A DNA stretch of 64,000 bases from Thermoplasmatales archaeon (lineage in GTDB: Archaea; Thermoplasmatota; E2; DHVEG-1): NCBI GenBank assembly GCA_020350825.1, contig CP070724.1, positions 1,077,584 through 1,141,583 of the forward strand. Reading direction: 5' to 3'. A model generated the notes under the pieces. The model saw only the letters and a list, made by a program, of their open reading frames with translations, searched no databases and was not told the origin of the DNA. This document shows positions 41,020-60,717 of this stretch, in pieces; positions within the stretch are counted from its first letter, which is position 1; each line of letters begins with the position of its first letter. Both the position numbers and the translations under genes were made by a program.

Positions 41020-41331
41020 ATGGATGCGACCGATATATTAGGTTTAACAGCGGGGGCCATAACATCTTTAGGCTTCATACCCCAATTGATTCGAGGTTAT
41101 AGAACCAAGAAACTTGATGATGTATCATATTATATGCCAATGACATTAGCATTTGGTATGACGTTGTGGTTGATCTACGGCATTGTTGTAGAAAAGTTAC
41201 CTATAATTGTAGCAAATGGTTTCGGAATCAGCTGCTGTTTCATTCTCATTATTATGAAAAGGATATACTCCCCTGCATATACTATGGTACCAGATACAAA
41301 TGGAGAAGAACCGCCTAGGGAGGAAAAATGA
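41020..41331 (+). CDS. SemiSWEET / PQ-loop small transporter
   Basis: Three TM helices. LGLTAGAITSLGFIPQLIRGYRTKK (PQ motif). Start taken at Met-7 of the track ORF. Confidence 0.65.
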   Translation: MDATDILGLTAGAITSLGFIPQLIRGYRTKKLDDVSYYMPMTLAFGMTLWLIYGIVVEKLPIIVANGFGISCCFILIIMKRIYSPAYTMVPDTNGEEPPREEK

Positions 41332-42323
41332 AAGATAACCTTCCAAAGGGACCATTTAGTTTCCTTTTATCTTGGCGACCTTTTCCAATTTATGAACTTG
41401 TAAGTTATGTACTAATGTTTGCTAGTGTACCAATGTTGGCATATGGATTGCATACATATGATTGGGAGATTATAAAAACAATTATTTTAACGATATTAGC
41501 CCTCTATTCTGGTTTCCTTGCAGCACTTATATGGAATGATATTACAGATATTGATATTGATGCTGTTGTACACCCAGATCGGCCGCTGCCCAGAGGTAGG
41601 ATAAGTTCAAAAAAATTCTTTATGGTAGCACTAATATTTTCGGCTATGACGTTTACGTTTTCAATTCTCGTTAGCATATGGTGCTTCATATTAGTTGGAG
41701 CAGCAGCCTTATTTGTAACATTTCATAATAAATACCTGAAAAAAATTGTAAAGATCCCTGCATACTCTGAAATCTTTACTCCCTTACAGTGGGTTGTCGT
41801 TGCGATATTTGGATTTCTTGCGATATGGACCGTACTTCCACAAACTGCAGATTTTATTTTCACATTGCCGTTATTTGGAACCATTTCAACAAGTGGTTCA
41901 GAGATTCAAAATATGATCCTTCTTGTTCTTTTTACATACTTAGCAGATAACGCTCATGATTTACCAGAAGGAATACATGATGTGGAAGGAGACCGTAAAC
42001 TAGGAGTAAAAACATACGCAACATCTTTTGGAGAAAAAACTGCAGCAAAAATATCCTTCTCCATGTTTGTACTTTCAGGTGTATTAGGTGTATTACTTTA
42101 CATAAGAACACTACTTTCTCCAATATTCTTGGTATTGTTTCTAATAGTATGGATACTAACACTACGTTGGTATTATAAACTCTTAAAATTTGAGGAGAAA
42201 GATAGGGCGGAGTTGGGAAAAATTGTTGGGAGAAAAGGCTACGACTATCTTCTTATGGTATATAATTTAGTATTTTTAGATGTAATATTACAAGTTATTA
42301 ACTTTCACTATAACATAGTTTGA
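41328..42323 (+). CDS. UbiA-family prenyltransferase
   Basis: NDITDIDIDAVVHPDRPLPRGRIS and a second Asp-rich motif DNAHDLPEGIHDVEGDRKLGVKTYA. 8-9 TM. ATGA overlap with the SemiSWEET gene. Confidence 0.85.
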   Translation: MKDNLPKGPFSFLLSWRPFPIYELVSYVLMFASVPMLAYGLHTYDWEIIKTIILTILALYSGFLAALIWNDITDIDIDAVVHPDRPLPRGRISSKKFFMVALIFSAMTFTFSILVSIWCFILVGAAALFVTFHNKYLKKIVKIPAYSEIFTPLQWVVVAIFGFLAIWTVLPQTADFIFTLPLFGTISTSGSEIQNMILLVLFTYLADNAHDLPEGIHDVEGDRKLGVKTYATSFGEKTAAKISFSMFVLSGVLGVLLYIRTLLSPIFLVLFLIVWILTLRWYYKLLKFEEKDRAELGKIVGRKGYDYLLMVYNLVFLDVILQVINFHYNIV

Positions 42324-42344
42324 GTTTTTTAAAATGAACCTGCA

Positions 42345-43262
42345 CTAACTCAATAATTTCGTCATTAATGCCATTTGTGTCCACATGCGATTTTCAGCCT
42401 CATCAATAATCACAGATTGGTTTCCATGAGCCAATTCTTTTGTAACTTCCTCTCCATAATATATAGGCATACAATGCATGAAAATAGCATCTTTCTTGGC
42501 TTTATTCATAATATCTTGTGTTATTGTATATTCTTTTAAATCATCCATTATTTGTTGTCTTTCTTTTTCATACCAGAGCGATACCCATGTGTCCGTAGCT
42601 ATTATGTCAGCGTTTTTAACGGCATCAATATCATCTGTTATAGTTACTTGTAGGTTTTTCTTTTCAGCTATCTTATTTGCCTGGTCAACGAAGTAATTTG
42701 ATGGCCAATGTTTCTTGTGCGAAATAACAGTTACATTCATTCCAACAGATGTACATCCTAGGAGGTAGGAATGCGTTAGGTTGTCGTCTCCATCTCCAAT
42801 GAAAACAAAATTCAGCCCATATAACCGTCCTTTGTTTTCTTTAATAGTCATCAGATCAGCTAGTATCTGGCAGGGATGTTCATCTATATCTAGCCCGTTT
42901 ATTACAGGAACAGTAGCATGTTTGGCAAGTTCATGTAAATCTTCTTTATTTAACGGTCTATACATTATGATGTCGGCGTATCTTGATAAAACCAAAGCAA
43001 TATCTTCAACGGATTCTCTCTGACCTATTTTGATATCATCTTTGTTTAGAAATACTGCATGACCACCCAATAGGATCGTACCTACTTCAAAAGAAGCTCT
43101 GGTTCGTGTCGACGCTCTTTCGAATATCATAGCAAGTATTTTACCCTTCAAATATTGAAACGTTTGACCATTTGTAGCATCTTGTTTTAATTTGATTCCT
43201 AGATCAATGATGTCTTCTATGTCATCTTTGACATCTAATATGGAGAGCACGTTTTTTTTCAT
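42345..43262 (-). CDS. ornithine-carbamoyltransferase-family protein with an atypical substrate loop
   Basis: STRTR, HPCQILADL, HCMP. The usual DxWxSMG is DTWVSLW here. Confidence 0.75.
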   Translation of the reverse strand: MKKNVLSILDVKDDIEDIIDLGIKLKQDATNGQTFQYLKGKILAMIFERASTRTRASFEVGTILLGGHAVFLNKDDIKIGQRESVEDIALVLSRYADIIMYRPLNKEDLHELAKHATVPVINGLDIDEHPCQILADLMTIKENKGRLYGLNFVFIGDGDDNLTHSYLLGCTSVGMNVTVISHKKHWPSNYFVDQANKIAEKKNLQVTITDDIDAVKNADIIATDTWVSLWYEKERQQIMDDLKEYTITQDIMNKAKKDAIFMHCMPIYYGEEVTKELAHGNQSVIIDEAENRMWTQMALMTKLLS

Positions 43263-43412
43263 AGATCCTGACAGGTGAAAAGCCCCTACTGTATTAAAAT
43301 CTTTAGTATTCCCTTCTGTTCATCTATATGATGCAATCCTAAAAAGTTATCTTCTCATATGGGAGTTTGAGCCTTGTAAACTGATTTAGATGCACATAAG
43401 TATTTCTGGCTT

Positions 43413-44741
43413 TTAGAATTTATTTGAGTGTATTCTTAAACCATCAATCCTCTCAAAGTGAAGTTTTATTTTCGGTGAAGGGGCTAATTGTAATTTTTTA
43501 GTTATTTTTTTTCTAAAGAAATGAGACTCGAAATCCATTGAAATTCCAACGCCTTTAGGTGGCAGGAAAAAATTTATTTTCAATTTATTATGTCCGATAA
43601 CTGAGATCTGCCGCTGTGGTTCAATTTTACAAATCCCTGAGAGCTTTATCGTTTCTACACCATTAGAGTAATAGCCTTCTACTATACCTGGCCCTTCACA
43701 AACAGCAAGTCCGATCCAATGTGCTTTTGAATGGGGAAATTGTCTCACATATTCTCTTGGCTCGTTGGTCATCTTGAAGGTCAGATGTAGTTTTTCTTTT
43801 CCCTTCTTAGCAGTAATTTCAAGTTCTAAAGGATAATAAAAATCATACTCATTGGCATATTTTGTTTTTTTATATTGAAAAGTGATATCACAGAATTCGG
43901 TATATGTTTTTCCATCCTTAGAGAAGATCAAAGATCCCATTGCTGGGCCGCCCATTATCCAAAACATCAAATTTCCATAGAATAAAGTCCATCCATTATC
44001 AAATAATGCCCATACCCAGTCATAACCAAATGGGTTATTTTCTGTACTAAATGTTATAGAAGAGGGGATACGTATTGTATGATTACGAATCCACCATCCA
44101 AAAAGCTTTGCATAGGTTACTATGGTTTTTGCCAAACCGGACGCATTTGTTAGTGGATTTTCATACAAAAAATCTCCCCATACATGTTCAAAATATCCTG
44201 TCCCTTCAATGGTAAACGTTTTATCTTTTATCTTCATGGTTCCAGTGAGTTGATTTTTGGGAATGAATCCGTATCTAAAGAAACCCAGACCCATAGGGAG
44301 CCAACCATTAGTGATGTCTTGAGCAATCCAACGAGGATATGATTCAGCTAGGTACTTGAGATCTATTTCAATATCATTTTCCGGGTCACTAAAATGCATT
44401 TCATAGTTAGGGAACCCTCCTTTCATAAATGAATTGTCATAGCTTACATTAAAGCTATCTTTGGCTGATTTTAATTTAACTGAATCGCTACGTGAATAGT
44501 GAATAAAATGTTTATTATTTACTTGATCAAAAAGAGTCATATTGGAAATATAACCAATTTTTGGTTTGTTAAACCATTCGTTAAATGTTACTTTTAAATT
44601 CCATTTCTTATTGTCCTCGACTGATTTGAAGAACGCTTCGGCACACCACCACTCTATTAGGGTTGGAAAATGTTCTCTTTCATCATCATCTGTCCAAGGA
44701 TTTAAAATGCTATTTCTATCTATCATTGTTCGACCTATCAT
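43413..44741 (-). CDS. CrtC/AttH-like (hydroxyneurosporene-synthase-type hydratase fold) protein, copy 1
   Basis: DDDEREHFPTLIEWWCAEAFF resembles the HP..EWWY core of CrtC/AttH. Close paralogue of 54072..55388. Confidence 0.6.
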   Translation of the reverse strand: MIGRTMIDRNSILNPWTDDDEREHFPTLIEWWCAEAFFKSVEDNKKWNLKVTFNEWFNKPKIGYISNMTLFDQVNNKHFIHYSRSDSVKLKSAKDSFNVSYDNSFMKGGFPNYEMHFSDPENDIEIDLKYLAESYPRWIAQDITNGWLPMGLGFFRYGFIPKNQLTGTMKIKDKTFTIEGTGYFEHVWGDFLYENPLTNASGLAKTIVTYAKLFGWWIRNHTIRIPSSITFSTENNPFGYDWVWALFDNGWTLFYGNLMFWIMGGPAMGSLIFSKDGKTYTEFCDITFQYKKTKYANEYDFYYPLELEITAKKGKEKLHLTFKMTNEPREYVRQFPHSKAHWIGLAVCEGPGIVEGYYSNGVETIKLSGICKIEPQRQISVIGHNKLKINFFLPPKGVGISMDFESHFFRKKITKKLQLAPSPKIKLHFERIDGLRIHSNKF

Positions 44742-44949
44742 TTCATTGGACTATTAAATATTTTTTAGAGATTTATAAACGGCAAATCCATTGTGATATA
44801 GATACCAATAAGAAAAAGATATGAAAACACAGAAAATATCAAATATCTAAAAATTAGAATTTCGCATAAGTCGCCTAAAGAGCAGGTTTGTACCGACGAT
44901 AATAAAAACTTTAAATCACATAAACTTACTCATCATTGTCCTAATAAAG

Positions 44950-45954
44950 GTGTCAATATTGAAAGCAATTTCAAAATCAAATTTTACTATTAAAGATAAA
45001 CTTTTTGCTCATTTGGAGACATGGAGACCATATACTGTATTATGGTGTGGACTTGTCAGTTTAGCAGGATCATGCATTGCCTTTGGTAATTTTCCTCCTT
45101 TAAAAATTGCAATTCTAGCTTTATTTGTACCTATGATGGGTTGGACGGCAGGACTATATCTTGCAGATTTTATAGATAGAAAACTAGATGCTATACAGAA
45201 ACCACATAGACCTATTCCCTCAGGTAGAATTAAACCAATGGAAGCACTTGCAATAGGTGGTATATTTGCAATAACCGGATTTATCCTATCGTTTCTACTT
45301 AGTCTAAACAATATCATACTGGTATTTATAGTGGCACTCCTCGTACTTTTTTATTCAAAAATTTCAAAATCCCGAGGGATAATAGGAAACTTTAATAGAG
45401 GAATAGTTACGGTTACTGCATATCTTTTTGGAGTGTTTTCTATAAACCAACCTTTACAATCAATTCCCATCTACATCTGGTTACTAGCAATTGTATTCCT
45501 GTTTCATGATACCAACAGCAATCTTGTTGGTGCGATAAGAGATCAGGAGGGGGATAAAAAAGGAGGTTACATAACTATACCTGTAAAATATGGAATTAAA
45601 AAATCTATATTCATTTCACTAGCTTTAACTATTTTTTGGTTTTTCCTTGCACTGTTCTTACCTTATTATTTTGAATTTTTAAAAATCGAATTTTATCTGG
45701 TAATGATAATTGACGCTCTAATTTTAATCTACCTCTATATTTACTTATTTAAGTCAATAAAAAAATATTCAAGAGAAAAAGCCTTAAAATTTCATGAATT
45801 CTTTGTAATAGAACGCATAACTCTAGCATCAGCTTTCATATTTGGTATTGTAAATATCTACATTGGAGTGATTATTTACCTCGACGCGCTTCTGGTTACT
45901 ATCGCTTCCCAATATTTACTTAGAAAAAGATATGAATTCAAGGAGAAATCATAA
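44950..45954 (+). CDS. UbiA-family prenyltransferase
   Basis: ADFIDRKLDAIQKPHRPIPSGRI and HDTNSNLVGAIRDQEGDKKGGYITIPVKYG. Multi-TM. Confidence 0.85.
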   Translation: MSILKAISKSNFTIKDKLFAHLETWRPYTVLWCGLVSLAGSCIAFGNFPPLKIAILALFVPMMGWTAGLYLADFIDRKLDAIQKPHRPIPSGRIKPMEALAIGGIFAITGFILSFLLSLNNIILVFIVALLVLFYSKISKSRGIIGNFNRGIVTVTAYLFGVFSINQPLQSIPIYIWLLAIVFLFHDTNSNLVGAIRDQEGDKKGGYITIPVKYGIKKSIFISLALTIFWFFLALFLPYYFEFLKIEFYLVMIIDALILIYLYIYLFKSIKKYSREKALKFHEFFVIERITLASAFIFGIVNIYIGVIIYLDALLVTIASQYLLRKRYEFKEKS

Positions 45955-46895
45955 TGAAATGTCTTGTTACTGGTGCAGTGGGTTTTATTGGAGATGCATT
46001 GGTAAAAAGACTGGTTAAAGAGGGATATGAGGTAATAGGACTAATTCATAAAGCGAAACCGAAAAATTACGAAAATTCAGAATATGTAGAAGGTGATATA
46101 ACAGAAATTGATTCCATTAAGCCTTTTGTTAAGAATGCTGATTTTATTTTTCACTGTGCTGCGACAGTAAAAGACTACGGTCCTAAGGAGATTTTTTATA
46201 AAGTAAATCTTGAAGGCACAAAAAATCTTGTTAAAGCGTCTGAAGAATTTGGAATTAAAAAATTCATTTTTCTGAGTCATATCAGACATAAATCTGAAAA
46301 AAGTGTTGGATATTATAGCGAAACAAAGGCACTAGCTGAACAATACCTCCTAGAAAAATTTAAACAAAATGGTTTTCCAGTGATCATTATTCGCCCAGGA
46401 AATGTATATGGTCCTGGAGCAACGACGTGGGTTCTAAGACCTCTTAAATCTATTCAAAAAAATCGGATCTCCTTAGTAGATCATGGAAATGGTATTTTCC
46501 TGCATACCTATATTGACAATCTATTAGATGCGATAATCACTGCATTGAAAGAGCCAAAGGCTCTTGGTGAAACAATAGATATTACTGATGGAGATAATAA
46601 TACCACCTGGTGTGAATATCTTAACACCATTGCGAAAATGGCTGGTAAGTCCGATATTAAAAAGAACATGTCGAAGAAAAATGCGTTGTTTATTGGTAAA
46701 CTGATGATATTGTTGAATAGAGTATTTAGAATTGATCCATGGATTACTCCAATGGCTGCCCTAGTTCTAGCTAATCAGAATAAAGTTTCGATAGAAAAAG
46801 CAAGATCTTTGTTAGGATACGAGCCCAAAGTAGATTTTCATGAAGGAATAAAACAAGTTGAAAATTGGCTTAGAAAAGAAAATTATATATCTTAA
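45954..46895 (+). CDS. NAD-dependent epimerase/dehydratase (extended SDR)
   Basis: VTGAVGFIGDALVKRL, YSETKALAE (YxxxK). TAATG overlap with the upstream UbiA gene, and AAGGAG RBS. Confidence 0.85.
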   Translation: MKCLVTGAVGFIGDALVKRLVKEGYEVIGLIHKAKPKNYENSEYVEGDITEIDSIKPFVKNADFIFHCAATVKDYGPKEIFYKVNLEGTKNLVKASEEFGIKKFIFLSHIRHKSEKSVGYYSETKALAEQYLLEKFKQNGFPVIIIRPGNVYGPGATTWVLRPLKSIQKNRISLVDHGNGIFLHTYIDNLLDAIITALKEPKALGETIDITDGDNNTTWCEYLNTIAKMAGKSDIKKNMSKKNALFIGKLMILLNRVFRIDPWITPMAALVLANQNKVSIEKARSLLGYEPKVDFHEGIKQVENWLRKENYIS

Positions 46896-46970
46896 TAAAG
46901 CTACAATATGATTTCACTAATCATATATGAGAACAATTAAATCATTTTACAAATAACTCTAATCGTAATT

Positions 46971-48284
46971 TTATTTCTCAACCTTCTCATTAAAAATCTC
47001 AATAAGTCTCTGAGCTGCTTTTTCTTCCCCTGGTACTCTTGTAAGTTTCGTTGATAATTCTTTGGCATTCTTCAAAAATGTATCATAATTATTAAAAATT
47101 GTATTAATTGCTTGTAATAGATTATCTGGTTTGAAGTACTTTCCTGATATTCTTAAACCAGCACCACTCCTTACTAGGTTATCAATATTGTATTGTGGTT
47201 CAATGAAGATTGGAATACCTATCGATGGTTTTCCAGAATAAGCTGCATTGTACACGGTCCCACGACCGCCCTGTATGATAGCTAGATCAACCATGTTATT
47301 TACTATTTGTGGATATTTTATGAACTGTTTTAATAAAATATTCTCTTTTGTTTCAAATAATTTTTCGTCAGGAATTATTGTGTAGACAACAATTATATTG
47401 TAATCTGTCTGATTAAGTGTATGTAAAATCTTAGGAAATAATTTTTTAGCAGGTGAACTACCCATTATAAGAAGAATAGATTTCCCAGGTCTCTTTAAAT
47501 GTTTTTTAATATCTTCATCTAATTTGCCTTCTTTTTTTTCTAATAATCCTGCTGATATAGGTCCAATGAAATTCTCAATTGGAAATTTATTTGTAGGTTT
47601 TATTCCCAATAAATTAATATCATCGCCGATAAGAGTATGATCTCCTTCAAGTATATCATTCAAAGTTCTAAATTGCTTGACATTATACTTTTCCGCAACC
47701 TTATTAAAATCTCTTACAAGATATTTATTATTTAATAGGATCCATCTTATAATCATATTTTTTAACGACAACGGCAACATTTTAGTGAAAACATTTTCAT
47801 AATTCTCAGGGAATGTTGCTAAACCTTGTTGAAAATAGGGAGAAATGAATGTCCCAGATATAAGAACTACAAGTGGAATGTTCAAAACTCTAGCAGATAT
47901 ACTGCTTGTAGGATTAAAAGAGCTGAATACAAGATCAACCCCAGTTTTTTTAAATGCCTCTATTTCACTTTCTACGAGTGGTCCGATGGTTTTTTTATTA
48001 TAAGCTAAAAACTGCCGTTTTTCAACTGGAATCTTGAATATGTCAACTTCGGCCATTGCTTTTCTCCATTCAAGCCCCTTCAATTTAATAACTTCACAAC
48101 CAATCTCTTTTACCAGATGCTCATATTTCCCACCATGGCTGAAGAAAATTCCTTCCCCACCTTTTTCAATATATTTTTTAGCAATTTTCACCTGAGGTAG
48201 AGTTTCACCCCTTGTATAAAAACAAGGAAAGAATCCTACAAGTGGTTTGTCTTTGATCTTTTTCCCTCCTTTATGATGATGCAA
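46971..48284 (-). CDS. GT-B fold glycosyltransferase, GT1 (UDP-glycosyltransferase/MGT-like) family
   Basis: C-terminal donor-binding region IQGGRGTVYNAAYSGKPSIGIPIFIEPQYNIDNL. Paralogue of 49203..50498. TTG start. Confidence 0.7.
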   Translation of the reverse strand: MHHHKGGKKIKDKPLVGFFPCFYTRGETLPQVKIAKKYIEKGGEGIFFSHGGKYEHLVKEIGCEVIKLKGLEWRKAMAEVDIFKIPVEKRQFLAYNKKTIGPLVESEIEAFKKTGVDLVFSSFNPTSSISARVLNIPLVVLISGTFISPYFQQGLATFPENYENVFTKMLPLSLKNMIIRWILLNNKYLVRDFNKVAEKYNVKQFRTLNDILEGDHTLIGDDINLLGIKPTNKFPIENFIGPISAGLLEKKEGKLDEDIKKHLKRPGKSILLIMGSSPAKKLFPKILHTLNQTDYNIIVVYTIIPDEKLFETKENILLKQFIKYPQIVNNMVDLAIIQGGRGTVYNAAYSGKPSIGIPIFIEPQYNIDNLVRSGAGLRISGKYFKPDNLLQAINTIFNNYDTFLKNAKELSTKLTRVPGEEKAAQRLIEIFNEKVEK

Positions 48285-52773: not shown

Positions 52774-54075
52774 GTGTTTAGTAAGTTTGTTAGAAAATAT
52801 ATAGAGGAATATAAATGGCTAAAACTAAAAAAATCAATTAAATATGCCTATAATACATCCCCATTTTACCATGATCTTTTCAAAAAAAATAATCTGAAGC
52901 CTAGTGATATTAAATCATTTAAAAATATGAATAAAATTCCTTTTACAACACCTAATGATCTACAAGAAAAAACAAAATCTTTTTTTTCAGTTCCAGAAGA
53001 TAAATTTGTAACTGTTTTCACTACAGCAGGTTCCACTGGTAAACCAAAAAAAGCATATTTTACAAAAAAGGATATTGATAAGATAATAACTTCAACTATC
53101 ACTGGATTGCAGCTCATGTATAGTGTTACATCTAGGGATGTTGTTCGTTTATCATTCGCAATAGGATATGGTGCAGAAATCTCAGGGAGCAGGTATTGTT
53201 TGAGTAAAGCATATGAAGGAATTGGTGCATTAACAGTTGCTCCTAGTAGATTAAGAGTTGAGGAAGAACTAGAAATTTTTAAAGATTATAAACCAACAAT
53301 TTTCATGGATGTTTCTTCACGTATCAATTATCTTACAAATGAAATGAAGAAAATTTATGATTTAAAAAAATTGGGTGTGAAAAAAATACTTCTTGGGGCT
53401 GAGCCGACACCAAATGCGATGAGGAAATTTATTGAAGAAAGTTGGAATGCAGATGTTTTCGTAGGATATGGTACATCAGAAACTGGTGTACTTCAAGCTG
53501 GCGAGTGCGAGGAAAAGAATGGTATGCATCTCAATGAATTTAATTTCTTCACCGAAGTTGTTGATCCAAAGACAGGTGAAATTTTAGAAGATGGGGACCT
53601 TGGTGAATTTATTTTTACAAATTATGATCGAGAGGGAATGCCATTAATTCGCTATAGAACACGTGATCTTGGGAGAATTATACCCGAGGTGTGTCCGTGC
53701 GGTTTACCGTTTAAAAGAATGATAATTAAAGGTCGAGTTGATGATATGATTTCAATTGGTGCAGGTGATAACCTGTATACACGGCGTTTTGATGATATTC
53801 TCTTTGAAATACCCGAGGTCATCGAATACCAGGTTATTCTTGATAGAAAAAATATCAAAGATGAAATCACCATAGTTGTGGAAACTGAAATAATAAAAGA
53901 TTCATTGAGTAAAAGAATTTTGGACGCTGTCATGGAAATGCCTGAAATAAATTCAGGTGTTCTTAGTTCAAAAACTATTGAAAAACCTGTGATCAAACTT
54001 GTTAAGCCAAATACTTTTGATAGAAACTCCATTAAACAAAAAAGACTTATAGATAACAGAAATCTATACAATTAA
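52774..54075 (+). CDS. adenylate-forming enzyme, phenylacetate-CoA ligase / coenzyme F390 synthetase family
   Basis: TTAGSTGKPKKAYF, GYGTSETG, IRYRTRDLG. GTG start. Confidence 0.8.
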   Translation: MFSKFVRKYIEEYKWLKLKKSIKYAYNTSPFYHDLFKKNNLKPSDIKSFKNMNKIPFTTPNDLQEKTKSFFSVPEDKFVTVFTTAGSTGKPKKAYFTKKDIDKIITSTITGLQLMYSVTSRDVVRLSFAIGYGAEISGSRYCLSKAYEGIGALTVAPSRLRVEEELEIFKDYKPTIFMDVSSRINYLTNEMKKIYDLKKLGVKKILLGAEPTPNAMRKFIEESWNADVFVGYGTSETGVLQAGECEEKNGMHLNEFNFFTEVVDPKTGEILEDGDLGEFIFTNYDREGMPLIRYRTRDLGRIIPEVCPCGLPFKRMIIKGRVDDMISIGAGDNLYTRRFDDILFEIPEVIEYQVILDRKNIKDEITIVVETEIIKDSLSKRILDAVMEMPEINSGVLSSKTIEKPVIKLVKPNTFDRNSIKQKRLIDNRNLYN

Positions 54076-55388
54076 TTATTTGTCTTTGTTTTATTATTTA
54101 TTTTGGAGCTATTGATTCTCCTAAAACCACATTTTATCTTTGGATATGGCATTAGTTGAAATTTAGTAAACAATTTTTTCCCAAGGTAGCTAGAGTGTAA
54201 ATCAACTGATATACCAACACCCTTAGGTGGGAGTAAAAAATCAAATTTTAAAGAATTATGACCTAGGATTGATGGCTGCCGTTGTTGTACAATTTTACAG
54301 TCACCTTGAAGCTTCACAGTTCTTTCATTATCAGTGTAAACACCCTTCATTTGACTAGGCATTTCACACATTACAAAAGCTTTATAGAAATTACCTTTTT
54401 TAAAAGGATCAATGTATTCGTATCCCTCCATTGTCATCCAGGCTCGAAGATGTATCTTTTTATCATCTAGCTGTCCAGTAACTTCCATATCACAGGGATA
54501 GTACATATCATATTCTTTGATGTAGATAAGTTTGTTATAATGAAATTGTACGTTGTAGAAATCCCAGAATTCTTTTCCGTCAGGGGTTATAGATAATATA
54601 CCAATTGAAGGACCCTCAGTTAACCAGAACATGGTGTTTCCATAGAACACACTCCAGTCATTATCTGAAACACCCCAGAACCAGTCGTAACCCATGAGAT
54701 TATTTTCAGTTGCAAATCCAATACCCTGTGGAAATCTTGGTCTACGTTGTGACAGCCACCTTGTACCAAGCCGCGCATATGTAGAAATCGTTTTCTTAAT
54801 CCCTGAGAGTTTTTGAAACGGGTTTTCATACGACCAGTTGCCATACGCATGTTCAAGATATCCTTTGCCTTCAATAGTATATAGTTTATTGCTTAAGCAA
54901 AGCTTGCCGGAGAGATTGCAATTAAGTAACCAACCATATCGATAATAATCCAGTCCTATTGGCAAGTAACCATTGGTGGCATCCTGTGCACTCCAACGAG
55001 GCAACGATTGAGCTTTATAGTCCATATCTGCTGTAAAACCTTGTTTGCTGTCCTCAAGATGAATATGATAATCTGGATATAATCCCTTGTATGAAAATCC
55101 CTTATAGGATACATCAACCTTGTTCTTTTTAAAAGACAGTTTTTTAACATCATCATTTAGATACTTATGAGCAACACATTTTTTATTCGTCATGTCAAAA
55201 AGAATATATGTTATAAAACATGAGGGCGTCTCCATCTCATACGCCATCGATGTTTTAAGATTCCACTTCCTATTGTCTTCTAAGGTTTTGAATAGGGTCT
55301 CAATACACCACCACTCTTTCATAGACGGATAGTGATCGCCCTCGTCTTGAGGAGTCCATGGATTTTTTAACTTGACTTTTTCTATCAT
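54072..55388 (-). CDS. CrtC/AttH-like hydratase-fold protein, copy 2
   Basis: QDEGDHYPSMKEWWCIETLF. The C-terminus (LLPPKGVGISVD...) is collinear with copy 1. Confidence 0.6.
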   Translation of the reverse strand: MIEKVKLKNPWTPQDEGDHYPSMKEWWCIETLFKTLEDNRKWNLKTSMAYEMETPSCFITYILFDMTNKKCVAHKYLNDDVKKLSFKKNKVDVSYKGFSYKGLYPDYHIHLEDSKQGFTADMDYKAQSLPRWSAQDATNGYLPIGLDYYRYGWLLNCNLSGKLCLSNKLYTIEGKGYLEHAYGNWSYENPFQKLSGIKKTISTYARLGTRWLSQRRPRFPQGIGFATENNLMGYDWFWGVSDNDWSVFYGNTMFWLTEGPSIGILSITPDGKEFWDFYNVQFHYNKLIYIKEYDMYYPCDMEVTGQLDDKKIHLRAWMTMEGYEYIDPFKKGNFYKAFVMCEMPSQMKGVYTDNERTVKLQGDCKIVQQRQPSILGHNSLKFDFLLPPKGVGISVDLHSSYLGKKLFTKFQLMPYPKIKCGFRRINSSKINNKTKTNN

Positions 55389-55437
55389 AATTTTTCAATG
55401 TATATAGTCCAACGTTTAAATACAATTAAGAAACTTA

Positions 55438-56757
55438 TCAGAAATTAAAATCTCGTTTGTAATATCGTCTATAGGAAACACTTGTAGCAGCTGGAATAAT
55501 ACCAGAGAATTTTTTAGTAGTCACCATAATTTTTGAAACCTTTTTAAACAAATTATATGATGAATAAAACTCCTTTGCTACTTTTCTTGCACCTTCCAAT
55601 AACTCTTTTTCAGTCATGTTTTTAGGCTTAAAAACAACATTAACCTGATTATAAAGAGACCAATCCCTTGTAAGTATTCTTCCATCCCGTTCAAGCCTAT
55701 CAAACAATGGTGTACCAGGATAAGGGGTAAGAATATTTACCTCAAGGACATCCAAATCCCAGTCGTTAATGGTCTCAAGCGTTGTATCAAAAATATCCGG
55801 TGTATCCTCATCAAACCCAAAAATAATTCCACCCTGAATCGTCATATCATGGTCATGGACTCTTTTTATCATTTTTTTAAAATCTTCTACCTTGTTATGG
55901 GTTTTTTTAATATTGTTAAGTGCCTCTTGATTCACCGATTCAAAACCAACAAACCATTCAACACAACCTGATTTTCTTGCTAGTTCTAAAAATTCTTTAT
56001 CAACTTTACCAAGAATATTAGATGTACCATTTGCCGCCCACCCTTTATGTATCTTCTGTCGAATCATCTCCTTAAAAATCTCCATAGCATACTTTCGATG
56101 CAACGTAAGATGAGGATCATGAAATATAAACAACTTATTCGGCATATTTTTTATTTCTTCAACAACAGCTTTAACGGGACGTTGCATCACGACATTTCCA
56201 CAAAAACTACTAATAGCACAAAACTCACATTGATTAGTACAACCCCTTGTGGTCTGTAAGGCACCTAAAAACGGATTATGCTTAATGAGATCTCTTCTTA
56301 GTGGGGGCACTATAGATATATCAAAATCATGATTCCTCTCATAAATTGGTTTTAATTTTCCCTCCCCAAAATCTTTAATTACCTGAGGCCAACTAGCGTC
56401 AGCCATCCCCATAACAACACTATCAGCATGTTGTCTGGCTTCCTCAGGTAATGCCGTTGGATGATATCCACCAAGTACAACAGTTTTCCCACGTTTTCTA
56501 AATTCATCAGCAATTTGATAAACACGTGGAGCTGTCATCGTATAACAAGTTATACCAACTAAATCCACATCTTCATCAAAATCAATCGGATCATAATTCT
56601 CATTAATAATTTTCACTGAATGCTCCCTAGGAGTTAATGCAGCAATATGCGGAAGGGTGATAATAGGATAGCCGGAAACTATCGTTCTCCATGACCCTCT
56701 ATCCTTAAAAGTGATAACACCATGTTCAATCCTTGGAAATACAAGTAAGATCTTCAT
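55438..56757 (-). CDS. B12-binding-domain radical SAM protein (class B, COG1032-like)
   Basis: N-terminal Rossmann-like VDLVGITCYT...VVLGGYHPT. TTRGCTNQCEFC. C-terminal RDWSLYN region. Confidence 0.85.
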   Translation of the reverse strand: MKILLVFPRIEHGVITFKDRGSWRTIVSGYPIITLPHIAALTPREHSVKIINENYDPIDFDEDVDLVGITCYTMTAPRVYQIADEFRKRGKTVVLGGYHPTALPEEARQHADSVVMGMADASWPQVIKDFGEGKLKPIYERNHDFDISIVPPLRRDLIKHNPFLGALQTTRGCTNQCEFCAISSFCGNVVMQRPVKAVVEEIKNMPNKLFIFHDPHLTLHRKYAMEIFKEMIRQKIHKGWAANGTSNILGKVDKEFLELARKSGCVEWFVGFESVNQEALNNIKKTHNKVEDFKKMIKRVHDHDMTIQGGIIFGFDEDTPDIFDTTLETINDWDLDVLEVNILTPYPGTPLFDRLERDGRILTRDWSLYNQVNVVFKPKNMTEKELLEGARKVAKEFYSSYNLFKKVSKIMVTTKKFSGIIPAATSVSYRRYYKRDFNF

Positions 56758-56782
56758 ACTTTCTTCACAATTACTCTATTTT

Positions 56783-58075
56783 TTAAATATGCAATTTTTC
56801 TCTTTTATAGAACGTGCGTAAGGCCAAGTTACTTCCTAATGTCATTATTGTGTCTATCGGATTAGTATTACGTAAACCAAAACTTCGTTTAAATGAATTT
56901 TTAATTGAATAAAACTCTGCAGAGATACCTCGTATACCCTCCATAAGTTCGTCCTCAGTCATCTTTATTGGTTTGAAATTAACATTATCTTCAGCATATC
57001 GTGACCAATCATACGATGTTATCCTTCCCTCTTTTTCCAGTCGTTCAAATAACCGTGTACCGGGATAGGGTGTTACAATACTAAATGATGCCTCGTCTAA
57101 ATCCCATTCATACATCGCATTAAGTGTCTCACGAAAGATATCTGGAGTGTCATTATCAAAACCAAACATAAAGAATCCAACTACTTTCATACCATGATCC
57201 TGGATTTTTTTAATAGCTTTCACGTAATTCTCCACTTTATTTGTTTGTTTACCAACTTGATTTATGGTTTCTTGAGAAATAGACTCAATACCCATATACC
57301 ATTTATCCACACCAGCCTCACTAGAAATTCTTAGAAACTCATCATCTCTTGATAAAACATTAATGTTGCCGAAACAATGAAATTTTTTATTTAACGATGC
57401 CATTTCTCTAAACAACGATTTCATATAAGGAGGACTAATAGTTAACGAGGCATCAGCGAAAAATATGATTTTTGATTTGATAAGTTTCATCTCATTGATA
57501 ATGTGATCAACTGGTCTTCCCCTAAACCTTGGACCTTCAACCTTTTGCATAGCACAAAATTCGCACCCAGTTGGACAACCACGTGATGCCTGAAGGGCCT
57601 CCATAAATGTATATACACCAATATCATGCCGTGCAGGAGGAATTAGTTCAGGTTCCACTAGTTTATCTGCTTTATAGAATGGCTTGAGTTTTCCATTTTC
57701 AAGCTCTTTCAACAGTTGAGGCCACGAAAGCTCTGCCTCGCCAATAACTACACTGTCCGCATGTTGTTTTGCTTCTTCTGGAAGTAATGAAGCATGATAT
57801 CCACCGAAAACAACAGGAATTCCCCGTTTCCTGTATATATCTGCGATTTCGTAACCTCTTAAAGAGTTATAAGTAAGACAGGAAATTCCTATGAGATCAT
57901 AGGCCTTATCAAAATTGATGTTTTCATACCGTTCGTCTACAATGTCTATAGTATGTTCTCTAGGGGTTATTGCTGCTATCTGCTGGAGAGTTAGAGAGGG
58001 ATATGAAAATTTTGTGAAAAAATTTCTTATCACATTAGTATGAGGCGATATCAATAGTATTTTCATAGGGTTCAT
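56783..58075 (-). CDS. B12-binding-domain radical SAM protein (class B), tandem paralogue
   Basis: YDLIGISCLT...VVFGGYHAS. ASRGCPTGCEFC. YDWSRY. Confidence 0.85.
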   Translation of the reverse strand: MNPMKILLISPHTNVIRNFFTKFSYPSLTLQQIAAITPREHTIDIVDERYENINFDKAYDLIGISCLTYNSLRGYEIADIYRKRGIPVVFGGYHASLLPEEAKQHADSVVIGEAELSWPQLLKELENGKLKPFYKADKLVEPELIPPARHDIGVYTFMEALQASRGCPTGCEFCAMQKVEGPRFRGRPVDHIINEMKLIKSKIIFFADASLTISPPYMKSLFREMASLNKKFHCFGNINVLSRDDEFLRISSEAGVDKWYMGIESISQETINQVGKQTNKVENYVKAIKKIQDHGMKVVGFFMFGFDNDTPDIFRETLNAMYEWDLDEASFSIVTPYPGTRLFERLEKEGRITSYDWSRYAEDNVNFKPIKMTEDELMEGIRGISAEFYSIKNSFKRSFGLRNTNPIDTIMTLGSNLALRTFYKREKLHI

Positions 58076-58250
58076 CCTTCGGGATGTTTATACTATATAT
58101 TAACATTTTCCTGTTTAGATTTTTTCCCTAGGGCCATTGTAATCACTTTCTTAAACCCTGTTCTTTAGGAATTTTGGTAATAACTGTAAAGAAAACTATT
58201 AATAATAAATATAGTGAAATAATATATAAAAATAAATAGTTTGGTGGAGA

Positions 58251-59540
58251 ATGAAATTAAAGCTAAAAAAAATTGATGCCATAATAGTGGTAGCATTGAT
58301 AGTAGTTGCAGGACTTTTTTTGTATAGAGCAGGTTATATTTCTTTACCACTATTTGATGGGGAAGTTACTCCACCAGATGACGAAAATGTAACGATTCCG
58401 CCACCAGAAATATCAACTCCGCCAAATTCTTTTATACCCTCTTTCAGGAGAGATGTTTCACCTGAGGATGAGGGAGTGCATTATGATAAAATTCGTATAT
58501 CTAGAGAATGGTGGTACTTTGGGGCAGTATTTAACGATGAGGATAGTGAATTAAAGGGTTGGTCTGTGTCAATAAGTTTTAATCATATGGCTCTAGGTGA
58601 TTTACTTGGGACATTAAAACCAGATCTTCTAGTAGTCACGTTACATGGCGAGAATGGAGAATCGTTTGGAGGTATGGTCAATAAAAAGAGGTATCTTGGA
58701 ATTTTAAACTCTGGTACCCTTATGGCAAGTTCTCCAGGAGTAAACGTAGAGTTTGAGGATTCGTGGGCTGAAGGCGAATATCCAAACTGGCATGTACATG
58801 CCGAAGATAAAGATATAGATAATTCTCATGAAATTGTCATAGATTTAGATTATAAAACAAGTTCGCTTCCTATTTGGACAATCGGTACAAGAGCTTTTGA
58901 TAAATCAAAAAGCAGTATTGCAAATTATCTATTTACAGGATGTGAAGTTACCGGTACAGTAGAAATCGATGGTGAGGAATTTATAGTAAAAGGAACTGGA
59001 CATCATGAACATTCATGGTCTCCAAAAACTGTAACAACTGGATTAATCAATGGATGGGACTGGTTTCATGTGACATTGGACAATGGTTGGAACATCTATG
59101 AAAGTAATTATTATCCAGTACCTCAGTTTGTATCTTCTAAAACATCCAGAATAAATCCGTTTGGTACCTTACTTATAACCACGGATAATGGGGAGACTAT
59201 GACAGAGCTGAAAAATGTTGATCTAAAAATAACAAGAGAGGATAATAAGATATTTCCGCTTGTAAGAATGCCAGCGGATTTCAGTATAACTGCAAAACCT
59301 AGTTTAAATCCCATTTATGTTGTAAGTCAATCATTATTATATGGAACAAACACAAAATTAGATGTAAATATTGAAATAGAAAATTCATACAATAAAATAT
59401 GGAAATTTCCTACCTATGTGGGTATGAAAGTTGGAGCATGTATGGTTGAAGGCACGTTGTCGTGGTCTGATGATGAAGGCGAACATCAAATATCCATAAA
59501 TGGGATAGGTGTTTCTTGGAGTATGCGTGCGTTGTTATAG
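58251..59540 (+). CDS. membrane-anchored CrtC/AttH-like hydratase-fold protein, copy 3 (divergent)
   Basis: N-terminal TM. PEDEGVHYDKIRISREWWYFGAVF (closest to the canonical HP..EWWY..G). GTGHHEHSW. Confidence 0.7.
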   Translation: MKLKLKKIDAIIVVALIVVAGLFLYRAGYISLPLFDGEVTPPDDENVTIPPPEISTPPNSFIPSFRRDVSPEDEGVHYDKIRISREWWYFGAVFNDEDSELKGWSVSISFNHMALGDLLGTLKPDLLVVTLHGENGESFGGMVNKKRYLGILNSGTLMASSPGVNVEFEDSWAEGEYPNWHVHAEDKDIDNSHEIVIDLDYKTSSLPIWTIGTRAFDKSKSSIANYLFTGCEVTGTVEIDGEEFIVKGTGHHEHSWSPKTVTTGLINGWDWFHVTLDNGWNIYESNYYPVPQFVSSKTSRINPFGTLLITTDNGETMTELKNVDLKITREDNKIFPLVRMPADFSITAKPSLNPIYVVSQSLLYGTNTKLDVNIEIENSYNKIWKFPTYVGMKVGACMVEGTLSWSDDEGEHQISINGIGVSWSMRALL

Positions 59541-59817
59541 TCTTTTACTTAATTTAAACAATTCCATTTTAGCATTTATATAACCAGTATCTAAATAGAT
59601 TTAATTTCTGTGATAAGAAGGGAAGTGTTAGTAGTAGTTCCAACAATAGAAGCCTTTCCAACCACCGTAGGAACCACACTTGCTGATTCATTGACATAAT
59701 AACTTCAAGGCTTGCCCATTTGCTCCCGCTAGGTTTTCCAAGTATTGTTGATCATGGTTTTCATGGGATATTGCTCCTATTAAAAAGGTCACATTAAGTT
59801 AATAACCAACGAGCTTA

Positions 59818-60717
59818 TTAACCAAGTAAAATATTGATATGGTAGACTATGCAACTTAAATACACTGCCACACCAAACACAGCTGAAAAGTAATATAATG
59901 AGGAAACTGGAGAATCTTTTTTTGATTTTGCTAAAAATATTCCTATTACTGCACCTCCACTTATAATTAAAATCGTAGAAATGTAACTTAAAGAATATAG
60001 TAAAATAAGTGGAATAAGAAAGATCGTATGTAATATAATAATCATTTTTAAAGTCGTTTTTGCAGTATCAAGTCCTACCCAAACTGCATATGTCGTTGTT
60101 CCAGTATTTTTATCAAAAGAATAATCACTAATATGATTATCGACTTGATCAATACAACTAAATATTCCTAGAGAAATTGCAACTAACCAGTTGATTATTC
60201 CTACGGAACCTGCAATAAAAGAACCCCATATTATAAGAAGGACAAACGCAAAGAAATGCCATATAATATCTACAACAGGTCGCCCTTTTAATCTCAGTGG
60301 AGGAGCGGAATACGCCCACATCCAAAATAAAAATACTACACATAATAAAAAAACCTCGAGTTTAAATAAAATTGAAATAACCAATGGAATAATGAAAAAG
60401 ATTAAATTTATTGCAAGTCCAGTTTGTTTTGAAATTTTTCCTGATGCCATTGCATTAATATGTTTCCTCCTTGGGTTTTTTCTATCTGAATCGATATCAT
60501 AATAGTTGTTTATCCCAAATGTAAACGATAGAATACAAAATATAGTAACAACAAAGACAGAAAAGGGTAACACATAGCTAGATAAATCTAAAGAAGACAT
60601 TCCTAAAATAAAACCCATAAAAGAGAGTGCAGACCAATTAACTACACCACGCAATCTAATAAATCCCGTTAGAAAAACTTTTACTATGTTTTTATTTTCA
60701 TCGGTTTCATTATTCAT
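59818..60717 (-). CDS. UbiA-family prenyltransferase
   Basis: NNYYDIDSDRKNPRRKHINAMASGKIS and DNHISDYSFDKNTGTTTYAVWVG. Multi-TM. Confidence 0.8.
   Translation of the reverse strand: MNNETDENKNIVKVFLTGFIRLRGVVNWSALSFMGFILGMSSLDLSSYVLPFSVFVVTIFCILSFTFGINNYYDIDSDRKNPRRKHINAMASGKISKQTGLAINLIFFIIPLVISILFKLEVFLLCVVFLFWMWAYSAPPLRLKGRPVVDIIWHFFAFVLLIIWGSFIAGSVGIINWLVAISLGIFSCIDQVDNHISDYSFDKNTGTTTYAVWVGLDTAKTTLKMIIILHTIFLIPLILLYSLSYISTILIISGGAVIGIFLAKSKKDSPVSSLYYFSAVFGVAVYLSCIVYHINILLG

Follow-up and report, generated by a model that had tools for sequence, protein, structure and literature searches.

A candidate membrane-lipid biosynthesis and tailoring locus in Thermoprofundales-like Thermoplasmatota

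What might an archaeon make with three UbiA prenyltransferases, three proteins of the AttH/CrtC hydratase type and three radical S-adenosylmethionine (SAM) enzymes, all encoded within 20 kb? The question is raised by a gene cluster at positions 41002-60717 of a 64,000-nucleotide window, the whole stretch of DNA analysed here (Thermoplasmatales archaeon, assembly GCA_020350825.1, contig CP070724.1, positions 1,077,584 to 1,141,583). A preliminary description had seen in the cluster a coherent isoprenoid-lipid tailoring theme next to the mevalonate genes. Families were assigned by Pfam and NCBIfam scans of the window proteins, with scores compared with curated cut-offs. These scans and a listing of open reading frames (ORFs) confirmed every gene in that inventory, each as an intact ORF bar one Methyltransf_24 gene and with coordinates within a few bases. 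The theme is likewise supported by the gene content and by the adjoining AcnX and UbiD-family genes, whose products we take to be enzymes of the archaeal mevalonate route.

Our preferred reading, to which we assign a probability of about one half, is that the region is a lineage-specific locus for the biosynthesis and tailoring of membrane lipids in Thermoprofundales-like (MBG-D, for Marine Benthic Group D) Thermoplasmatota, placed beside genes for isoprenoid supply. The best reading of its product is a set of tertiary-hydroxylated and, in some genomes, glycosylated isoprenoid ether lipids. The broader claim that the locus acts on membrane isoprenoid ether lipids is somewhat safer, and the odds that its AttH-like proteins are hydratases giving hydroxylated lipids fall a little short of even. 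A strict desaturate-then-hydrate pair of the kind formed by the enzymes Ted and Hgs, described below, is doubtful. Gene families, the AttH fold, intact radical-SAM motifs, co-conservation and a restriction to Thermoplasmatota are what the analysis established. The reading draws on the family assignments and the fold, on the Ted/Hgs precedent and a similarity to Ted, on an operon B12b-B12a-CrtC2, and on the persistence of a core module in unrelated flanks. It draws also on the match of one UbiA protein to a solved digeranylgeranylglyceryl phosphate (DGGGP) synthase, the mevalonate adjacency and a Grs homologue in a related genome.

Hydroxylated and otherwise modified archaeal tetraethers serve as environmental and palaeoclimate markers, but little is known of the sediment organisms that make them. 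Thermoprofundales rank with the most common archaea of sediments, uncultured and without a known lipid profile. Ted and Hgs form the only genetically defined route from finished glycerol dialkyl glycerol tetraethers (GDGTs) to hydroxy-GDGTs, and the hydratase has been reported missing in Thermoplasmatota. For this phylum the locus supplies specific genes as candidates for an independent hydratase and radical-SAM system, directly testable in the expression hosts already used for Ted/Hgs.

AttH-like proteins, B12-binding radical SAM enzymes and DGGGP-synthase-like UbiA proteins

The cluster encodes three AttH/CrtC-like proteins. CrtC1 (43413-44741, minus strand), a soluble putative isoprenoid hydratase, exceeds the Pfam CrtC threshold (PF07143; 26.3 bits against a cut-off of 22.5). 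CrtC2 (54072-55388, minus strand) has no Pfam match and is 44% identical to CrtC1 over 437 amino acids. CrtC3 (58251-59540, plus strand), a distant paralogue adjoining the AcnX genes, scores 20.8 bits, below the same cut-off, and matches CrtC1 and CrtC2 by BLAST at E values of 1e-13 and 1e-10, respectively. Its N-terminus comprises a hydrophobic segment (residues 1-19), read as a membrane anchor, followed by a Pro/Thr-rich linker, and CrtC3 therefore probably faces outward. Orthologues of CrtC3, 56-91% identical, occur in 13 loci of related genomes, syntenic beside the AcnX genes.

CrtC1, the only one of the three to be modelled, gave an AlphaFold2 structure with a mean pLDDT of 86.5. Foldseek comparison with the PDB returned AttH (2ICH; E 9e-14, TM score 0.70) and kievitone hydratase (7A0T; TM score 0.66), with weaker matches to fungal pericyclases and a 25-phosphosteroid lyase, and the model thus predicts the two-domain, lipocalin-like beta-barrel fold of AttH. 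A profile built from the family and its remote relatives (A2) matched 2ICH at an E value of 8e-11; the motifs H...EWW, E-H-x-W-G and G-x-D-W align, and a helical insertion of about 40 residues is specific to the family. H186, D241, W242 and E30-W31-W32 are invariant or nearly so and might include catalytic residues. The family is small: an exhaustive hidden Markov model (HMM) search of 1.84 billion representative proteins yielded 120 clusters (50% identity) at E ≤ 1e-3. An exact-sequence contig look-up of CrtC1 returned a single 4.3-kb Logan contig. Kievitone hydratase and 25-phosphosteroid lyase, two structural matches of known chemistry, convert between an alkene and a tertiary C-O group of an isoprenoid side chain. 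Hydration, as first proposed from the sequence, is plausible for the AttH/CrtC-fold proteins, and CrtC1 and CrtC2 may act in this way on an isoprene double bond.

CrtC2 is the third gene of an operon B12b-B12a-CrtC2 with intergenic gaps of 26 and 50 nt, the latter between B12a and CrtC2. B12b (56783-58075, minus strand, 430 amino acids) and B12a (55438-56757, minus strand, 439 amino acids) are tandem paralogues, 44% identical to each other. Both combine B12-binding (PF02310), Radical_SAM (PF04055) and DUF4070 domains, and the CxxxCxxC motif is intact in each (CPTGCEFC at C167 of B12b, CTNQCEFC at C173 of B12a), as it is in the third radical SAM enzyme of the cluster. B12a is very highly conserved, its best 120 homologues all being at least 70% identical; the best solved structure scores 45.8 bits against it. 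The same gene order is repeated in the related locus L084 (GCA_030619765.1), where B12a is 96% identical. The NCBIfam matches of B12a (BchE 119.8 bits, HpnJ 110.6) fall below cut-off, B12b scores 93.8 bits on HpnJ, and HpnJ is the second-best family for both. NCBIfam holds no model for Gmm, Cgm, Pgm or GrsA/B.

A functional precedent exists for this pairing of families. Ted, a B12-binding radical SAM enzyme of a Bathyarchaeon, anaerobically desaturates saturated GDGT chains, and Hgs, an AttH-like protein encoded by a gene overlapping ted, hydrates the double bonds made by Ted to give hydroxy-GDGTs (Garcia, Chadwick, Nayak, Welander, bioRxiv 10.1101/2025.10.20.683597, October 2025). By the homologue criteria of that preprint (BLASTP 1e-80 for Hgs; 1e-100 and at least 500 amino acids for Ted), its authors report that Hgs homologues are nearly confined to Methanobacteriota and Bathyarchaeota and that Thermoplasmatota, while possessing homologues of Ted, lack Hgs. 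We recovered a ted-hgs locus (L083) by searching a metagenome collection with the 5′ ted primer given in the preprint's supplement. JGI contig Ga0180300_10001364 carries, at 6080-8951 (plus strand), the published genes or near-identical copies: both ted primers match exactly at the ends of a 614-amino-acid B12-binding radical SAM ORF, a 344-amino-acid ORF shares 8 nt with it, and a putative Grs gene lies before it. Hgs from this locus has no Pfam or NCBIfam match, so current annotation pipelines cannot recognise it.

Ted aligns with B12b at 27% identity over 439 amino acids (E 2e-37) and with B12a at 24% identity (E 7e-30); judged by sequence, it is far closer to them than any solved structure, yet not orthologous. 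Its top NCBIfam families are the same as theirs, HpnJ (166 bits) and BchE. Because Ted is a desaturase, these labels say nothing about the function of B12a and B12b, and we dropped them as a guide for this enzyme class. C-methylation by the two enzymes, as first proposed, is consequently not favoured over desaturation. To our knowledge, no sequence signature separates B12-binding radical SAM desaturases from methylases.

Two of the UbiA proteins resemble DGGGP synthase. UbiA2 (44950-45954, plus strand; PF01040, 127.9 bits), the nearest of the three to that family, aligns along its entire length with the Methanocaldococcus jannaschii enzyme (PDB 6M31, E 1.5e-25), its best PDB match; the Asp-rich motifs are there, but A replaces the N of NDxxDxxxD. 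UbiA1 (41328-42323, plus strand; PF01040, 99.5 bits) keeps the canonical NDxxDxxxD motif, also has 6M31 as its best PDB match (E 5e-13) and has orthologues of 50-92% identity in relatives. NCBIfam scores are sub-threshold for both proteins: UbiA2 reaches 141 bits on PRK12884, 118 on PRK12882 (DGGGP synthase; cut-off 296) and 102 on PRK12883 (cut-off 353), and UbiA1 112 on PRK12884 and 73.5 on the DGGGP synthase model (cut-off 296). The DGGGP synthase models are clade-specific, so these scores do not exclude that function. Since DGGGP synthase is the closest relative of both proteins, the statement in the preliminary description that no GGGP/DGGGP synthase signature pair is visible was not right as regards DGGGP synthase, and part of the cluster may belong to core ether-lipid synthesis rather than to tailoring. 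UbiA2 and CrtC1 are divergently transcribed. The end of UbiA2 overlaps by one base the start of a short-chain dehydrogenase/reductase (SDR) gene, which suggests translational coupling.

Conservation in related genomes and surrounding genes

A locus scan with alignment A3 as query, taking one genome per GTDB species, returned 75 loci. All but one (74 of 75) bear the label Thermoplasmatota or an earlier or wider name for it (Thermoplasmata, Thermoplasmatales, Euryarchaeota, Methanobacteriota archaeon, uncultured archaeon); the exception, L072, is given simply as "archaeon". AttH-like homologues, all of them unnamed proteins, come from Thermoplasmatota wherever a source is stated. Among the loci are SG8-52-3, SM1-50 and M9B1D, metagenome-assembled genomes (MAGs) of Thermoprofundales/MBG-D (PMC6461988), and the window, too, most likely derives from this order.

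To count partners, the cluster proteins were compared with the ORFs of the fetched loci within 10 kb of the AttH-like gene, for the 59 loci whose AttH-like protein is at least 40% identical. A nicotianamine synthase (NAS)-like gene is present in 41 of the 59, an orthologue of UbiA1 or UbiA2 in 39 and one of B12a or B12b in 36. The SDR gene, adjoining UbiA2, follows (20/59), then orthologues of a PaaK-like ligase (13/59), a radical SAM/SPASM enzyme (9/59) and a family 1 glycosyltransferase (GT1; 1/59). None of the 16 loci with a less than 40% identical AttH-like protein carries NAS-like, UbiA1/2, B12a/b or the other listed partners. Above 40% identity the recurrent order is AcnX large, AcnX small, CrtC3 (minus), B12a (plus), NAS/PCMT-like (minus), SDR (minus), UbiA2 (minus), CrtC1/2 (plus), ornithine carbamoyltransferase (OTC; plus) and UbiA1 (minus), sometimes followed by the SPASM enzyme, a methyltransferase and a SemiSWEET gene (minus).

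An unrelated ornithine carbamoyltransferase gene is conserved in the same block, so synteny alone is weak evidence of function. Stronger evidence comes from three further observations: the persistence of the module, the placement of B12a or B12b upstream of the AttH-like gene, and tandem AttH-like duplicates inside the module (L012, L014 and L035). The AttH-like/B12 radical SAM/adenylase/NAS-like/UbiA module lies beside AcnX and OTC in L004, and beside glyceraldehyde-3-phosphate dehydrogenase and phosphoglycerate kinase genes, with neither OTC nor AcnX, in L002 and L006; altogether at least two other genomic contexts lack both (L002/L003 and L006/L007/L024). Orthologues of B12a or B12b occur in 34 of the 49 loci with upstream room and stand directly upstream on the same strand, like B12a 50 nt before CrtC2 in the window's operon, in at least 11; in many others the UbiA2 operon separates the two. 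Which of the two lies immediately upstream varies by genome; B12b orthologues do so in L009, L010 and L036-L037 and lie about 2 kb upstream in L041-L042. The core whose members remain linked from one context to another comprises the AttH-like protein, the B12-binding radical SAM enzyme, the DGGGP-synthase-like UbiA, the NAS-like protein, the SDR and a PaaK/CapK-like adenylase.

Conservation across relatives had been set in advance as a test that could refute the proposal. The core genes are co-conserved (41, 39 and 36 of 59 loci for the three commonest partners), but the 20 kb is not one unit. L084 has B12b-B12a-CrtC2, the PaaK-like, SPASM, NAS-like, SDR and UbiA2 genes, one glycosyltransferase (GT1b) and an intact Methyltransf_24 gene (MT24), and the stretch sampled there lacks a second glycosyltransferase (GT1a), CrtC1 and UbiA3. 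These differences identify the window's 20 kb as an expanded version of a conserved core; together with the rarity of GT1 in relatives and the broken MT24 gene of the window, they speak against the whole region as one conserved unit.

Two side observations concern relatives of the locus. In L057, a Thermoplasmatales MAG, a gene at 14792-16438 (plus strand) encodes a full-length homologue, 48% identical, of the putative Grs encoded before ted in L083 and lies about 0.5 kb from the UbiA1 orthologue. In L004 (3326-6744 and 14531-15388), and likewise in L005, ATP-citrate-lyase-like genes and a CMAS-family methyltransferase gene lie within the syntenic block. CMAS-family (cyclopropane/mycolic-acid-synthase-type) methyltransferases methylate lipid double bonds.

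In many relatives a single operon, read in one direction, comprises UbiA2 and the SDR, NAS-like and PaaK-like genes. The extended SDR (45954-46895, plus strand; Epimerase 116 bits, 3Beta_HSD 92 bits) resembles 3-beta-HSD/OleD/HpnA-type reductases or epimerases, with sub-threshold NCBIfam scores of 134 bits for OleD and 111 for HpnA. The NAS-like class I SAM-dependent transferase (48569-49192, plus strand; Pfam NAS 29.9 bits, cut-off 27.1), a core gene, has thermonicotianamine synthase (3FPE/3O31, E 2e-8) and then CntL as its best PDB matches. Its nearest solved relatives are aminocarboxypropyl transferases, not methyltransferases, and by homology the group it transfers could be methyl or 3-amino-3-carboxypropyl. 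The PaaK-like adenylate-forming ligase (52774-54075, plus strand; AMP-binding and AMP-binding_C_2 domains) is convergent with CrtC2, overlapping it by 4 nt. Its best PDB match is phenylacetate-CoA ligase (4R1L, E 8e-58), and its NCBIfam scores (PaaK 233 bits, DVU_1553 family 231.5) are below cut-off. In many relatives PaaK orthologues or CapK-like paralogues flank the AttH-like gene and belong to the core there.

The remaining genes of the cluster are less widely shared. The radical SAM/SPASM enzyme (51382-52485, minus strand, 367 amino acids; Radical_SAM 74 bits, SPASM 34 bits) has its CxxxCxxC motif at C50. NirJ2 (108.7 bits) and AhbD (100.6 bits) score far below their cut-offs, and Tes (NF045702, cut-off 450) is not among its 25 best families, the lowest of which scores about 46 bits; orthologues in the nine loci are 45-49% identical. 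This gene heads an operon SPASM-MT24-GT1b. MT24, a CmcI-like O-methyltransferase gene (50551-51333, minus strand; PF13578, 48.8 bits on the C-terminal part), is interrupted by an in-frame TAA (51064-51066) inside an A-rich run. Its L084 orthologue is intact (257 amino acids, 90% identical) with AAA (Lys) at that position, and the window gene has either become a pseudogene very recently or been misread in sequencing. GT1b (49203-50498, minus strand; Glyco_tran_28_C 68.6 bits, MGT subfamily 70.7 against a cut-off of 260), the last gene of the operon, is an accessory gene present in L084 and, at 41% identity, in L006 and L024. GT1a (46971-48284, minus strand; UDPGT, Glyco_tran_28_C and EryCIII-like_C domains) is its 57%-identical paralogue and a genome-specific accessory. 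The divergent UbiA3 (59818-60717, minus strand; PF01040, 90.5 bits) is co-directional with the mevalonate genes and lies 173 nt downstream of them; its best NCBIfam match is PRK12875 (59 bits, below cut-off), and it matches the Archaeoglobus UbiA homologue AfUbiA (4TQ3) at an E value of 1e-9. Besides the L084 stretch, it was not found in the sampled flanks of any fetched relative locus.

The earlier remark that the cluster holds almost no unrelated genes stands in so far as the region is rich in lipid genes. The housekeeping ornithine carbamoyltransferase (OTCase, ArgF; 42345-43262, minus strand; PRK00779 350.6 bits against 306, TIGR00658 339.6 against 280.85), syntenic in 26 of the 59 loci, is nevertheless a bystander. 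The SemiSWEET gene (41002-41331, plus strand, likely start ATG at 41020; PQ-loop 31 bits, MtN3_slv 29.7, NCBIfam SemiSWEET_2 79.2 against 80), with orthologues in 19 of the 59, is probably another: it sits at the edge of the syntenic block and overlaps the start of UbiA1 by 4 nt.

A tRNA-Pro(GGG) gene (40855-40929, minus strand; ARAGORN, Rfam tRNA 53 bits) marks the left edge. GC content is 0.31-0.37 over the whole window with no shift at the cluster. Gene scans of the window found no integrase, transposase or other mobility gene, and there is no repeat or GC change at the tRNA-Pro border. A mobile genomic island is ruled out by this uniform GC content, the lack of an integrase and the synteny in relatives, so that "island" can mean a cluster only. 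Left of the tRNA lie unrelated genes. Immediately adjacent is a full-length serpin (39347-40624, minus strand; Pfam 405 bits); serpins are uncommon in archaea. Two unusually long nitroreductase-domain proteins (26725-28293, plus strand, 522 amino acids; 36531-37889, minus strand, 452 amino acids) enclose a UvrA-UvrC-UvrB block (29959-36249).

The mevalonate-pathway flank on the right (60891-63967, minus strand) comprises AcnX small (60891-61280) and large (61277-62461), an LpdD-like gene (62452-62769) and a UbiD-family decarboxylase gene (62753-63967). Scores are 530 bits for AcnX, 112 for AcnX_swivel and 334 for UbiD (TIGR00148, cut-off 244.85). The gene order is identical in L084, where a GHMP kinase gene precedes it. 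The LpdD-like gene, 105 amino acids long and lying between the decarboxylase and AcnX large genes, has an L084 orthologue with a Pfam LpdD_chaperone domain, which suggests that its product is a dedicated helper of the mevalonate-route decarboxylase.

Elsewhere in the window, a second cassette (4143-8848, minus strand) encodes a TIGR04283 "arsenosugar biosynthesis glycosyltransferase" (193.6 bits, cut-off 182), a weaker paralogue (126.9), a TIGR04282-family protein (179.5 against 134), an ArsM/DVU_1556-like methyltransferase and a radical SAM/SPASM enzyme. It possibly represents an arsenosugar- or arsenolipid-type pathway. The SPASM protein (7787-8848) scores 38.9 bits on Tes NF045702 (cut-off 450), and a literature search for DVU_1553 and TIGR04072 cassettes returned nothing. 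A radical SAM protein at 22711-23781 (plus strand) resembles the AmmeMemoRadiSam-system enzyme (72.8 bits, cut-off 220) and glycyl-radical activases; it appears to have no relation to the lipid cluster.

Weighing the readings

Under the membrane-lipid reading, UbiA2 and UbiA1 would build or vary a prenyl ether lipid, and the soluble CrtC1 and CrtC2 would add water to an isoprene double bond to give tertiary-hydroxylated chains. The double bond could have two sources. The B12-binding radical SAM enzymes might reintroduce it anaerobically into saturated chains, the part that Ted plays for Hgs; alternatively, the substrate might be an unreduced geranylgeranyl intermediate, in which case these enzymes would be C-methylases. 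Changes to the polar end or the backbone are the probable task of the SDR, NAS-like and PaaK-like proteins, whose genes share a conserved operon with UbiA2. In this genome the SPASM-MT24-GT1b operon and GT1a may cross-link or glycosylate the product, perhaps at the new hydroxyl.

We consider it unlikely that the conserved core makes a lipid class undescribed in any archaeon. One possible form of such a lipid is an ether lipid with a chain hydroxylated by hydratases of a family separate from Hgs and Has. Such a lipid might also bear an aminocarboxypropyl- or acyl-type modification from the NAS-like/PaaK-like pair and, in this genome, chain-linked sugars. If this were true, sediments would owe hydroxylated or otherwise unusual tetraethers to an unsuspected producer, Thermoprofundales (MBG-D).

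Several points weigh against the membrane-lipid reading. No orthology links the locus to the Ted/Hgs system. Hgs finds no window AttH-like protein by BLASTP at E ≤ 0.01, phmmer and hmmsearch give E values of at least 0.006 (in a tiny database), and alignment of the two family profiles by hhalign yields an E value of 0.017 over 51 columns, with a probability of 2.7%. These results rule out the CrtC proteins as Hgs orthologues and leave the shared fold alone. B12a and B12b are similarly ruled out as Ted orthologues by their 24-27% identity, their length of 430-439 against 614 amino acids and E values short of 1e-100; about 175 residues shorter, they lack the long C-terminal extension of Ted and carry a DUF4070 tail. 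The AttH fold, moreover, includes non-hydratases (pericyclases and a phosphate lyase). In the commonest arrangement a divergent UbiA2 operon stands between B12a and the AttH-like gene, which are then not one operon. For the PaaK-like aryl/alkyl-acid ligase and the NAS-like transferase, known ether-lipid chemistry offers no evident task. Simple descent within one order could account for much of the synteny, given the conserved OTCase. A literature search on Thermoprofundales lipids, or for a butanetriol dialkyl glycerol tetraether (BDGT) methylase tied to such a cluster, gave nothing specific. Finally, we infer the substrates, the hydration step, the choice between desaturation and methylation and the glycosylation target.

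The ligase and the transferase would be at home in a quite unlikely alternative that nevertheless survives best, a prenylated small molecule such as a quinone-like cofactor or secondary metabolite. Here the PaaK-like enzyme would activate an aryl or alkyl carboxylic acid and a UbiA protein prenylate it, as UbiA enzymes often do with aromatic acids; the SDR and NAS-like protein would tailor the head, the AttH-like proteins hydrate the side chain and the B12-binding enzymes methylate. The match to phenylacetate-CoA ligase (E 8e-58) fits such a scheme, as does the co-directional UbiA2-SDR-NAS-like-PaaK-like operon, and kievitone hydratase, among the best structural matches of CrtC1, acts on a prenylated isoflavonoid. 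UbiA2 and UbiA1, however, score best on DGGGP synthase and not on the UbiA, MenA or homogentisate families, and Pfam and NCBIfam scans show no ring-forming or ring-modifying gene in the cluster. The organisms live as anaerobic heterotrophs in sediment, and no quinone has been described for them (PMC6461988 discusses none); the nearest characterised B12-binding radical SAM relative compared, Ted, is a lipid desaturase.

The conserved bystanders raise the possibility, which we regard as improbable, that the genes serve no common pathway: those for core ether-lipid synthesis (mevalonate enzymes and DGGGP-synthase-like UbiA proteins) would merely adjoin unrelated radical SAM, AttH-like, ligase and glycosyltransferase genes, their co-conservation reflecting shallow ancestry. 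OTCase and SemiSWEET, with no lipid role, are kept in the block; all loci belong to one phylum and lose the partners once AttH-like identity falls below 40%; and the 20-kb gene content differs even from that of the MAG with a 96%-identical B12a (L084). Shallow ancestry accords poorly with a core module found in at least two further contexts without OTC or AcnX, with B12a or B12b directly upstream of the AttH-like gene across genomes, with tandem AttH-like duplications inside the module, and with enzyme classes that match three known classes of GDGT-chain tailoring.

Distinctly improbable is head-group remodelling, in which GT1 would add a hexose, the B12-binding enzymes would contract or rearrange its ring to a cyclitol-type ether head (compare HpnJ in hopanoids and Cds in calditol synthesis; both ring-contraction proposals are reviewed in PMC13459092), and the SDR and methyltransferases would tailor the sugar. 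The HpnJ scores of B12a and B12b (110.6 and 93.8 bits) would suit it, as would the presence of GT1, of an SDR scoring 111 bits on "hopanoid-associated sugar epimerase HpnA" and of a CmcI-like sugar O-methyltransferase. But the HpnJ label is uninformative, since Ted, a tail desaturase, scores higher still (166 bits); GT1, in 1 of 59 loci, is missing from nearly all relatives that keep the B12-binding and AttH-like genes; and the conserved partner is an AttH-fold protein, a binder of hydrophobic substrates.

A peptide-modification cluster making a ribosomally synthesised and post-translationally modified peptide, with the B12-binding enzymes as C-methyltransferases and the SPASM protein as maturase of a small precursor, was set aside as very improbable: although both enzyme classes are typical maturases in such systems and several NCBIfam matches of the SPASM protein are peptide maturases, there is no conserved small ORF (the 23-36-amino-acid ORFs of the PaaK-SPASM spacer, 52486-52773, are unrelated to a 33-amino-acid ORF of L084) and no protease or transporter in the cluster, where three UbiA and three AttH-fold genes would have no place.

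Comparison with known systems

The closest parallel to the membrane-lipid reading is the Ted/Hgs system. In both, in the setting of archaeal lipids, a B12-binding radical SAM gene lies directly upstream of, and co-directional with, a gene for an AttH-fold protein. Ted, B12a and B12b share a B12-binding and radical SAM core with a CxxxCxxC motif, alignable over about 400-440 residues. A model of an Hgs homologue (pLDDT 90.8) has the same PDB neighbours as CrtC1, at lower TM scores; both families therefore have an AttH-like fold, and in the models the window family is the more canonical. AttH 2ICH, kievitone hydratase and 25-phosphosteroid lyase are common structural matches, and both families carry an E-[WY]-W-W motif near the N-terminus. 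The differences are equally plain. Hgs has 344 amino acids, CrtC1 and CrtC2 about 440, including the roughly 40-residue helical insertion; the ted and hgs genes share 8 nt, whereas the window genes are separated by 26-50 nt and lie apart in many relatives; and Hgs is reported from Methanobacteriota and Bathyarchaeota, the window family being found only in Thermoplasmatota. The window also has two B12-binding radical SAM and three AttH-like paralogues, and UbiA, SDR, NAS-like and PaaK-like partners.

With the wider AttH/CrtC/kievitone hydratase superfamily, the window family shares the two-barrel lipocalin-like fold, the Pfam CrtC score of CrtC1 and the profile match to 2ICH. It differs in its 11-15% identity to solved members, its helical insertion, its very small size and the lack of a phytoene synthase or desaturase gene nearby. 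Compared with the M. jannaschii DGGGP synthase, the full-length alignment of UbiA2, the weaker one of UbiA1 and the Asp-rich motifs are set against scores far under the NCBIfam cut-offs, two paralogues in one locus and no geranylgeranylglyceryl phosphate (GGGP) synthase gene nearby.

Two other comparisons were made from published descriptions. The methylases Gmm, Cgm and Pgm and the ring synthases GrsA/B belong to the same class as B12a and B12b, B12-binding radical SAM enzymes that act on inert isoprenoid carbons; their published members exceed about 495 amino acids, against 430-439. Ted itself is a 31%-identical homologue of Gmm (bioRxiv 10.1101/2025.10.20.683597). Gms, the cross-linking glycerol monoalkyl glycerol tetraether (GMGT) synthase, is a SPASM/twitch radical SAM enzyme for which AhbD served as outgroup (PMC11214058). 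The window's SPASM enzyme, scoring best on NirJ/AhbD, probably falls in the same region of sequence space; it has 367 amino acids, against the 400 or more required in published Gms searches, and occurs in just 9 of 59 related loci. As judged from family assignments, three enzyme classes known to tailor GDGT chains (B12-binding radical SAM, SPASM-type radical SAM and AttH-like hydratase) are represented in the cluster. In green sulfur bacterial carotenoids, CrtC and then CruC turn an isoprene double bond by hydration into a tertiary alcohol and glycosylate it. The logic of hydration followed by glycosylation would be the same here, but the carotenoid glycosyltransferase belongs to family GT2 rather than GT1, the substrate class is another and GT1 is accessory in this lineage.

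The proposal that the cluster matches no described pathway thus holds for its gene families and fails for its mechanism, for which Ted/Hgs is the precedent (bioRxiv 10.1101/2025.10.20.683597). An undescribed lipid-modification system, as first suggested, is borne out only in so far as the families differ from those characterised. What is known already is the mechanism class, a B12-binding radical SAM enzyme and an AttH-like hydratase acting on archaeal lipids. What is new is its appearance in different gene families, in a phylum reported to be without the hydratase, and in the company of partners (UbiA, SDR, NAS-like and PaaK-like) that are unaccounted for by any described pathway and whose conserved operon implies a chemistry fitting no described ether-lipid step.

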